From the sequence record PP925847.1: 44,738 nt of DNA. One strand, 5' to 3'. The translations under genes were made by a program, and so were the position numbers. Within the stretch, counting starts at the first letter, position 1. Each line of letters opens with the position of its first letter. The stretch is from Escherichia phage Zumzum. The notes beneath the pieces are model-generated. The model searched no databases. It saw nothing but the letters and a program-made list of their open reading frames with translations, and had not been told where the DNA came from. Shown here one piece after another: positions 26,897 through 27,429 of this stretch.

Positions 26897-26924
26897 TGTT
26901 CAGTCCTCATGTTGGTGTGCAACC

Positions 26925-26953
26925 AATATAGCCTGGTGCCGGGGTGAACGCAA
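26925..26953 (-). promoter_or_regulatory. promoter-like TTGCGT-N17-TATATT followed by GGTTGCACACCAAC
   Basis: The 20-nt block TATATTGGTTGCACACCAAC is identical to the one at 16129-16148 on the plus strand. Confidence 0.45.
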
Positions 26954-27108
26954 CCAATATTAATCACGCGCATGAAAAAGTTGATCGCTATCTGCTGTGA
27001 CTGCAAACTGCATTTTTCACTCTCCATTCTGCACCTCGCATTGGTTGCCTAGTTCATCGACGACCGCACTTCGCATCTTGCTGCCGTGTATTTTGCAATC
27101 CCCGGATT

Positions 27109-27281
27109 TTATTCAGTCTCAGACGAGGGGGGCCACTGACCCCCGTCTAGTCTGAAAGACTGGGAGTTGTCCCGCCTGTCCCGCTCCCAGCCGGGCCGCG
27201 TCATCCGGGGCGGGACGGGGGTGCTGTCCCGCTTTGTCCCGCCCAATTCTGTCCCGCTTTTTGTCCCGCTTACTTTATGCA
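27109..27281. repeat. copy 2 of the ~175 bp structured repeat
   Basis: Same palindrome module and TGTCCCGC array as 10224-10398; central 34-bp cassette differs in sequence but not in length. Confidence 0.85.
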
Positions 27282-27319
27282 ATAAAACTGCATAACTATT
27301 CATCTCATCTACACTACGC

Positions 27320-27418
27320 GGCAACCAATACGACCAGATAAAAACACGCAAAATGGCAACCAATACGCGCACAAATTAATCGTTTAGCGATATGGGAATT
27401 CCCATATCGGCAACCAAT
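27320..27418. promoter_or_regulatory. three direct GGCAACCAAT repeats (27320, 27355, 27409) flanking an 18-bp perfect palindrome ATATGGGAATTCCCATAT (27390-27407)
   Basis: Read directly; lies just 3' of the primase-helicase gene. Confidence 0.6.
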
Positions 27419-27429
27419 GCGCGCAGAAT

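Follow-up and report, generated by a model that had tools for sequence, protein, structure and literature searches.

The Rep protein of the Staphylococcus aureus pathogenicity islands (SaPIs) is a self-loading helicase whose C-terminal winged helix reads 6-12 iterons lying immediately downstream of rep, and in SaPI5 a primase is fused to the helicase (PMC9371898). The alpha protein of P4 unites primase, helicase and a C-terminal winged helix that binds the origin repeats in one polypeptide, a stem-loop of ~100 nt situated 3′ of the primase-helicase gene of pRN1 (orf56/orf904), which a small repressor gene precedes, is required for replication, and the oriV of RSF1010 combines iterons and the RepA helicase with hairpin sites at which a dedicated primase starts synthesis (PMC4234260). 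Here we describe a module of direct repeats, an AT-rich box and a hairpin in Escherichia phage Zumzum (record PP925847.1), the window of this analysis being the whole stretch of 44,738 nucleotides, which is a complete Dhillonvirus genome (~44.7 kb) of the HK578/SO-1-like siphophage type (~44-45 kb). The core of the module occupies ~27105-27305 within a 533-bp region (26897-27429) adjoining the gene for a 754-residue primase-helicase, and its sequence makes it a fairly probable replication origin of the phage, one that would be recognized by the initiator-helicase itself by means of a C-terminal winged helix.

To our knowledge, hardly any origin has been mapped in virulent siphophages that encode their own polymerase and a helicase-primase, and in the literature searched no description of an origin was found for a Dhillonvirus or for Guernseyvirinae-like relatives. 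The locus offers a concrete origin candidate, a candidate for the domain that reads the repeats and a set of naturally swapped pairs of domain and repeat in which specificity can be studied, and it would be of use in the engineering of common coliphages (BASEL phages Bas14-17 included), in the design of origin-titration resistance plasmids and in the reading of coverage profiles.

Anatomy and conservation of the module

The region had been placed by the initial annotation between the 3′ end of the primase-helicase gene and the first gene of a minus-strand block, and this location holds: it lies 3′ of the primase-helicase open reading frame (ORF; 27430-29694, minus strand) and 5′ of a minus-strand ORF of 108 residues (26570-26896). 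Escherichia or Shigella Dhillonviruses make up nearly all of the 157 phage records that it matches, with identities of 80-93%. From the annotation of these relatives it is plausible that the region is the largest intergenic one, as had been stated, the next-longest gap being one of ~385 bp at 10161-10544. A hypothetical coding sequence is annotated inside the region in some GenBank records, but single-base indels between close relatives argue that it is non-coding and against such coding sequences; records in which the repeats are annotated as hypothetical genes or terminators can be corrected in this way.

Read along the minus strand from a ATTGGTTGCC site, the module presents an AT-rich box, four direct copies of the repeat GCGGGACA, one inverted copy, a GC-rich spacer, two more direct copies, a hairpin and the word ACACGGCAGCA. 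Column identities were derived for each feature from an alignment of 17 related loci, 16 of them from Dhillonviruses. The seven copies of GCGGGACA (six direct, one inverted) lie 160-260 nt past the primase-helicase stop codon, the first direct set at 27262-27269, 27250-27257, 27235-27242 and 27225-27232 (minus strand), the inverted copy at 27210-27216, and the second direct set, beyond the GC-rich spacer (27185-27224), at 27177-27184 and 27168-27175 (minus strand). The CGGGACA cores are invariant in 17/17 aligned loci, and across the array as a whole column identity is 92% in the cores and 78% in the spacers. Genome-wide, GTCCCGC is found at 22 sites against 9.2 expected, with two clusters, at 10284-10540 and 27169-27269.

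The AT-rich box, TGAATAGTTATGCA (27289-27302, in 27275-27304, minus strand), sits inside a hairpin, TTATGCA-N7-TGCATAA (27275-27295). Its column identity among the Dhillonviruses is 98.7%, its AT content over 40 nt ranks at the genome's 99.9th percentile, and it is proposed here as a candidate site for DNA unwinding or for an accessory factor. The 7-nt loop of this hairpin reads GTTTTAT in some Dhillonviruses and the reverse complement, ATAAAAC, in others. Such flips of loop and box are small inversions that took place at short inverted repeats, and they fit DNA that forms hairpins or is often single-stranded. The box was also considered as a DnaA box and rejected as such, for it fits the relaxed consensus, judged by eye, only in some relatives.

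On the far side of the repeats lies a long imperfect hairpin of ~50 nt (27114-27162, minus strand), composed of AGTCT-ttc-AGACT, a stem of a G-run and a C-run, and a further AGACT. Folded as DNA it has an energy of -13.4 kcal/mol and is more stable than shuffled sequences (z = -3.3), with column identities of 94.5% in the stems and 68% in the loop. No T-tract follows it on either strand, the next sequence being GAGACTGAATAAAATCC, and between the hairpin and the promoter of the downstream genes stands the conserved word ACACGGCAGCA (27079-27089, minus strand; 95% column identity), which is present in all lineages compared. Among the Dhillonviruses and in L028, a relative of 69% identity (relatives are cited by locus label), the repeat cores, the box and the hairpin stems are nearly invariant while spacers and loops are variable, and these figures (92-99% for cores, box and stems versus 55-78% for spacers and loops) suggest that selection acts on the repeats rather than on a reading frame.

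All features listed in the initial annotation occur in the region, each well in excess of chance, with the small corrections given below. An origin beside the primase-helicase gene, which the initial annotation had suggested as one possibility, is the best-supported reading of the region. The evidence for it, however, lies in the TGTCCCGC repeats, the box and the hairpin (27105-27305), and not in the GGCAACCAAT repeats that had been put forward.

Lineage-specific repeat words and their candidate reader

At least seven lineages have the same layout (box, three to four direct repeats, one or more inverted repeats, spacer, two direct repeats, hairpin, ACACGGCAGCA and promoter) immediately 3′ of the primase-helicase gene, and it is kept in relatives whose primase-helicase is only 37-49% identical to that of the window. 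The repeat word is CGGGACA in the window, in L015 (a relative of 84% identity) and in L028, CCGACA in L022 and L153, AGGGATAA in L024 and L154, GGGGATGA in L027, CGGACAA in Enterobacter phage phiEap-2 and L155, GGGGGAGA in Salmonella phage FSL SP-031 and ACTCGCAA in L156; the gap that follows the gene in L158 contains another lineage-specific word, GGGGATCA, some copies of which are inverted. The box is constant across the lineages with the whole layout (the same 13-14-mer 3′ of the primase gene), as are ACACGGCAGCA and the layout of the hairpin (X, X′, G-run/C-run stem, X′), in which X itself is lineage-specific. When viral contigs were scanned for the 14-mer TGAATAGTTATGCA, most of the matches listed were due to chance, and at least five of the loci fetched carry a primase-helicase homologue.

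Lineages other than the Dhillonviruses have two TGAATAGTTATGCA boxes, spaced by exactly 21 bp (L022, 5171-5209; L024, 6307-6345; L150, 3014-3052; L053, 5318-5356; L155, 3835-3873). The doubled boxes resemble a pair of ArgR-binding (ARG) boxes with 5-8 mismatches in 32 positions of the consensus, which is a weak lead only. A 21-bp spacing rule is described for ARG boxes (PMC4381063). The window has a single such box, with 3/16 mismatches, which is no better than chance.

The primase-helicase of 754 residues has a primase-like N-terminus with a zinc-finger motif, a helicase core, a predicted winged helix and an acidic tail, DDDLKD. Among the PHROG families it is assigned to 3228 (‘replicative helicase-primase’); the N-terminus has matches to ‘DNA primase’ families only, with 9765 covering residues 24-177. 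The RepA-type helicase core at residues 357-531 gives the sole Pfam hit, AAA_25 (E = 2e-19), a family that holds RepA-type helicases. Residues D87 and D89 and a Cys/His cluster at 246-287 are invariant. Searches of the PDB with the protein and with a profile returned no primase or winged-helix relative, and the match to RSF1010 RepA (1g8y) was far from significant (E = 0.54 by sequence, 0.1 by profile). The C-terminal ~90 residues are the most variable stretch of the enzyme, and AlphaFold2 models the C-terminus as helix-strand-helix-helix-hairpin, with predicted local distance difference test (pLDDT) values of 79-87. The predicted winged helix (~residues 664-738, encoded at 27481-27705, minus strand) is the proposed reader of the repeats.

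Co-divergence was measured for each pair of relatives as the identity in the C-terminal domain divided by the identity in the rest of the protein (the body). For pairs that share a repeat word this ratio averages 0.97 (n = 6), compared to 0.72 for pairs with different words and a body identity above 60% (n = 31). For instance, L153 and FSL SP-031, whose words differ, are 92% identical in the body and 52% in the domain, and phiEap-2 and L155, which share a word, are 79% identical in the body and 95% in the domain. The small XRE-type helix-turn-helix (HTH) protein encoded upstream of the enzyme in those lineages does not track the word, since it is 81% identical between L027 and L155 and their words differ. 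By this correlation the predicted winged-helix domain diverges jointly with the repeat word, and it is probably the enzyme's own C-terminal winged helix, as modeled, that recognizes the repeats.

For binding, melting and priming we infer the following course. The primase-helicase would bind the GCGGGACA repeats through its C-terminal winged helix, would assemble on them and open the adjoining AT-rich box and/or extrude the conserved hairpin, and would then load itself as the replicative helicase and make the initial primers that serve DNA polymerase A of the phage.

The locus is like the pri-rep-ori of SaPIs in its helicase initiator, in having repeats just downstream of the gene, in two sets and in opposite orientations, and in the element-specific pairing of repeat word and C-terminal domain. 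It is unlike them in that the helicase core is RecA-type and RepA/DnaB-like (AAA_25) and not SF3/AAA+, in place of a central AT-rich region flanked by oppositely directed repeats there is a GC-rich spacer between the repeat sets (27185-27224), only one repeat is inverted, the AT-rich box (27275-27304) is outside the array, there is a long conserved hairpin, and the carrier, instead of being a satellite, is a virulent siphophage of 45 kb that encodes a DNA polymerase. In P4 one repeat word is shared by ori and the cis replication region (crr), which lie several kb from each other, and the window genome likewise has a pair of GCGGGACA clusters at a distance of 16.9 kb. In P4, however, a TOPRIM-type primase is joined to an SF3 helicase, while here no such Pfam hits were obtained, the N-terminal part looks like another type of primase and the helicase is RepA-like, and relatives outside Dhillonvirus manage with one copy. 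With pRN1 and BIP-1-type phages the locus shares the order of a small DNA-binding protein gene, a primase-helicase gene encoding a C-terminal winged helix and, 3′ of it, the candidate origin, but pRN1 has no iterons and an SF3 helicase, whereas here iterons dominate and the hairpin is ~50 nt. A RepA-family helicase and iterons combined with hairpins are also features of the IncQ plasmid RSF1010, which uses three separate proteins (RepA, RepB′ and RepC, the last of which reads the iterons) and two hairpins on opposite strands, unlike the one fused protein and one hairpin module found here. Hence the module would work like these systems but is not a member of any of them.

Several observations weigh against an origin that is read by the primase-helicase. 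Jersey-like relatives, whose enzyme is ~44% identical, have no module within 4 kb of the gene, and terminators and convergent genes are found where it would be. The DNA encoding the domain adjoins the repeats, so that one recombination event could swap both and the association could arise without a functional link; the ranges of the ratios for same-word and different-word pairs touch (0.83 versus 0.85), and the pairs are phylogenetically non-independent. The segment between the repeat sets is GC-rich, unlike the AT-rich SaPI origins, and AT-rich DNA is at the flank; moreover, genome-wide there are about a dozen spots with an AT content comparable to that of the box, which is only one of them. 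The repeats are spaced irregularly (by 9, 10, 12 and 15 nt). In addition, a promoter follows the module in the window, the second copy of the module described below and the modules of L022, L024, L027, phiEap-2 and L155, which fits a purely transcriptional role. Counted for the origin were the lack of a terminator T-tract, the lack of an Rfam family and the reported headful packaging, none of which signals a rival function.

The hairpin could also act as RNA, if read-through transcripts of the primase operon (for copy 1, described below, of the late operon) folded into hairpins that served as a processing or stabilizing site, or in antitermination in the manner of the put sites of HK022. Both copies of the module are oriented with transcription and no terminator blocks read-through, and the conservation of the hairpin layout while its sequence differs by lineage, together with a fold that beats shuffles (z = -3.3), is what such an element might show. 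However, the loop and the box are found in both orientations, which alters an RNA but not a DNA palindrome, irregularly spaced direct repeats of 7-8 nt with inverted copies typify protein binding to double-stranded DNA, and the joint divergence with the winged-helix domain points to DNA recognition. No Rfam family was found even at E ≤ 1, where the region gave one chance-level match of 19.9 bits, and the whole window had no hits at gathering thresholds. A function as an RNA element is therefore considered very doubtful.

The second copy and the promoter-linked motif layer

The second copy of the module (copy 1; 10224-10541, minus strand) lies in the non-coding gap of ~385 bp that separates the tape-measure gene from the tail-chaperone frameshift region, and comprises a hairpin (10229-10277), two plus four iterons, an inverted box, and extra palindromic iteron units at 10421-10462 and 10500-10541. 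The initial annotation had recognized the element at 27109-27281 as a repeat copy, and rightly so: this TGTCCCGC/hairpin element matches 10224-10359 over 78 nt at 94% and over 49 nt at 82% identity. Copy 1 is present in 157/157 Dhillonvirus records, as is copy 2, and only in Dhillonviruses. In phiEap-2 there is a single repeat cluster in the whole genome and no copy 1, and hence a second locus is no general requirement of the enzyme family. By analogy with the described systems, copy 1 could be a second origin, a cis enhancer like the crr of P4 or a transcription-linked element; if the module is an origin, the same repeats in copy 1 would make it either of the first two. Two iteron loci in one phage provide a system for studying why both are kept. 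Just past copy 1, 37 nt upstream of the tape-measure start codon, is an extended -10 promoter-like sequence, TGATACAAT (10197-10205, minus strand), which is conserved in EP23.

The GAATAGGTATGCA box of copy 1 is inverted in the window (10400-10430) relative to EP23 (L160, 12180-12215). EP23 has one and the same hairpin module in its two copies (12300-12400 and 39265-39335), down to the loop tcagcgg, and in the window the two hairpins differ at two loop bases and two pre-stem bases; there are hints here of gene conversion between the two copies.

Two GenBank records (UAE_MI-01 and EcoIv6a_Kente) start or end inside copy 1, which might be taken for the mark of a packaging site (pac/cos) or a site-specific recombination site, used by terminase or a recombinase. 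Short repeated words with a palindrome do resemble terminase-binding arrays, and the inversions of loop and box could reflect recombination at short inverted repeats. Nevertheless, UAE_MI-01, the record that starts inside copy 1, is a circular assembly that was probably cut at the repeat, and Dhillonviruses in general assemble as circles, for which PhageTerm calls headful packaging (PMC9022532). The cos 10-mer published for EE09 (PMC10673088) has no exact match in the window, and its one-mismatch hit at 6906-6915 is at chance level. The module is ~5 kb from the small terminase gene and always abuts the primase-helicase gene, and no recombinase gene is nearby. A packaging or recombination function is accordingly given next to no credence.

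A motif of another kind overlies the region. GCAACCAAT has 15 sites genome-wide versus 0.54 expected, and the 10-mer ATTGGTTGCC has four versus 0.16 expected, with 4/4 within the 533-bp region. When all GCAACCAAT sites are aligned on their ATTGGTTGC strand, orientation follows the direction of transcription, and outside the 533-bp region the sites overlap sigma-70-like promoters, such as TTGCAA-N18-TATATT (16105-16134), TTGCAT-N17-TATATT (~39876-39904) and TTGCAA-N18-TATAGT (41550-41579); within it such an overlap is seen at TTGCGT-N17-TATATT (26925-26953, minus strand). Because they are promoter-linked and oriented with transcription, the GCAACCAAT sites are part of a genome-wide transcriptional control system. 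The three GGCAACCAAT(A/G)CG repeats reported at 27320, 27355 and 27409 do exist and represent the ...GCC variant, with no -10 element behind the copies. As ingredients of an origin these GGCAACCAAT repeats have to be given up, since they belong to the genome-wide promoter motif and their copy number varies from 1 to 3 among the Dhillonviruses.

The ATTGGTTGCC copy nearest the AT-rich box (27320-27329, minus strand) is the best kept of the three, at 97% column identity, and is the sole upstream copy in EP23, the others being at 27355-27364 and 27409-27418. An inverted ATTGGTTGCC (27040-27049, plus strand; 98.8% column identity) brackets the iteron/hairpin module together with 27320-27329. A 54-bp tandem duplication (27355-27440, minus strand) spans the 3′ end of the primase ORF, including the stop codon; it consists of two units spaced 54 apart (27355-27386 and 27409-27440) that share 88% identity, and it is found in 8/16 Dhillonvirus loci and absent from the rest. 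To this duplication the genome owes its third GGCAACCAAT copy (27409-27418) as well as a perfect palindrome of 18 bp, ATATGGGAATTCCCATAT (27390-27407). The palindrome is present as annotated, but because the duplication is missing in half of the loci, it and the third repeat are dispensable, and the palindrome cannot be an essential part of an origin.

The promoter of the downstream minus-strand genes (26912-26958, minus strand) is the TTGCGT-N17-TATATT recognized earlier as promoter-like, and it is indeed present at 26953-26925 with conserved hexamers. Conservation is 82% in the -35 hexamer TTGCGT (26948-26953), 93% in the -10 hexamer TATATT (26925-26930) and 68% in the spacer, which is yet constant at 17 nt. 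Two ATTGGTTGC sites (26950-26958 and 26919-26927) and a palindrome, TTGGT-N5-ACCAA (26912-26926), overlap it. By its sequence, 26925-26953 is predicted to behave like a real sigma-70 promoter; a promoter and terminator consensus scan of 26000-28000 gave no promoter at its threshold and did not list it, because TTGCGT matches only 3/6 positions of TTGACA. TTGGT-N5-ACCAA occurs right after the -10 element of three promoters, at 16133-16147, 26912-26926 and 30049-30063 (early HTH/primase), with three sites versus 0.01 expected, and looks like a shared operator, for which it is a candidate. As for the additional GCAACCAAT motifs listed in the initial annotation, those at 26919-26927 and 26950-26958 (plus strand) are present, the start of the first having been given 2 nt off, as 26917, and the copy at 27040-27048 is inverted. 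With a conserved promoter present besides the module, ‘hub’ was a fair word for the region.

The promoter-linked motif was compared by lineage in L015, L026, L028 and L156-L158 and in L022, L027, L150, L153, L155 and L159. It is TTGGTTGC in the Dhillonviruses, L026, L156 and L157, TTGGCTG in Guernseyvirinae-like phages and TTGGCAGC in L158. The HTH protein of 109 residues had been named as a binder and was rejected as the one for GCAACCAAT, since its homologues occur only in Dhillonvirus-like loci, yet L026, L156 and L157 use the same word and other lineages the same or similar ones; moreover, in other lineages the counterpart of this HTH stays the same where the repeat word differs. Two copies of the inverse word, CAGCCAACA, also lie within the 3′-terminal part of the phiEap-2 primase gene and encode Gln-Pro-Thr there. 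Between the inverted ATTGGTTGCC and the promoter is a possible ORF of 17 codons (MQFAVTADSDQLFHARD; 26960-27013, minus strand) with a GGAG ribosome-binding site, the frame of which is kept in all aligned Dhillonvirus loci, including L015 (5 residues differ), at 92% column identity.

If the module is the origin, the ATTGGTTGCC/GCAACCAAT sites and the promoter at 26925-26953 would form a separate transcriptional layer that drives or gates the small-gene, lysis and packaging block. Alternatively, control of transcription would be the sole purpose of the module, with the repeats acting as operators or enhancers (read by the winged helix or another factor) of the downstream promoters, that at 26925-26953 for the small-gene/lysis/packaging block and that at 10197-10205 for the tape-measure and tail genes, and with replication starting elsewhere. 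The conserved promoter that follows both copies and the modules of L022, L024, L027, phiEap-2 and L155 is consistent with this, but the distance from module to promoter is ~25-150 nt, unlike the fixed geometry of an activator, and neither the hairpin nor the AT-rich box has an obvious role in promoter activation. Similarly, the GCAACCAAT sites are clearly promoter-linked genome-wide, and the region stands between the early HTH/primase operon and the later genes, which no intrinsic terminator sets apart, but the repeats track the C-terminal domain of the helicase-primase and not a dedicated small regulator. Copy 1, within the late operon, would be oddly located for an origin, while origins with an iteron array 3′ of the gene for an initiator-helicase are documented (PMC9371898). 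A purely transcriptional module is on balance unlikely, although it deserves to be kept in mind; as a promoter follows every module checked, some weight is left to this role and a small amount to one at the RNA level.

Replication and transcription might also be coupled, the modules being enhancers through which loading or passage of the helicase switches on the promoters downstream of each copy. Such coupling seems improbable. If true, it would tie late gene expression to the onset of replication via the replicative helicase itself, and it would explain why Dhillonviruses have retained a second copy inside the tail operon.

Neighboring genes and other features

The gene for the 109-residue HTH protein (29705-30034) precedes the primase-helicase gene, both being on the minus strand, and the early promoter of this HTH/primase operon is TTGACA-N17-TAGTTT (30066-30094). 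No intrinsic terminator was found on the minus strand between the primase gene and the next ORF in the scan of 26000-28000. Downstream of the region are small ORFs (from 26896 downward), followed by holins, endolysin, exonuclease, terminase and structural genes.

In-frame tandem repeats of 42-63 nt are located at 44088-44288 inside a minus-strand ORF of 637 residues at the end of the window, and acidic, GAT/GAC-rich repeats are found in two plus-strand ORFs of the replication module (30417-30775 and 33731-33934); these repeats are coding and unrelated to the 533-bp region. A cluster of AATTGCA at 7095-7215 was discarded as a trivial effect of a palindromic k-mer.

The plasmid database yielded one homologue of the primase-helicase only, in the E. 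coli ‘plasmid’ CP088689.1 (L161, 1-6439), a circular, non-mobilizable replicon of 44 kb that encodes a RepA-family helicase-primase of 34% identity and a DUF2800 nuclease; iterons are not evident in the vicinity. The replicon looks like a phage-like element that persists in plasmid form, and its divergent promoter region contains ATGTGAATAGT twice.

Within the minus-strand structural block of the window there is a plus-strand cassette of two genes (~16094-17312), which has its own TTGCAA-N18-TATATT promoter with two ATTGGTTGC sites and a terminator-like hairpin at 17292-17312, and which resembles a moron.

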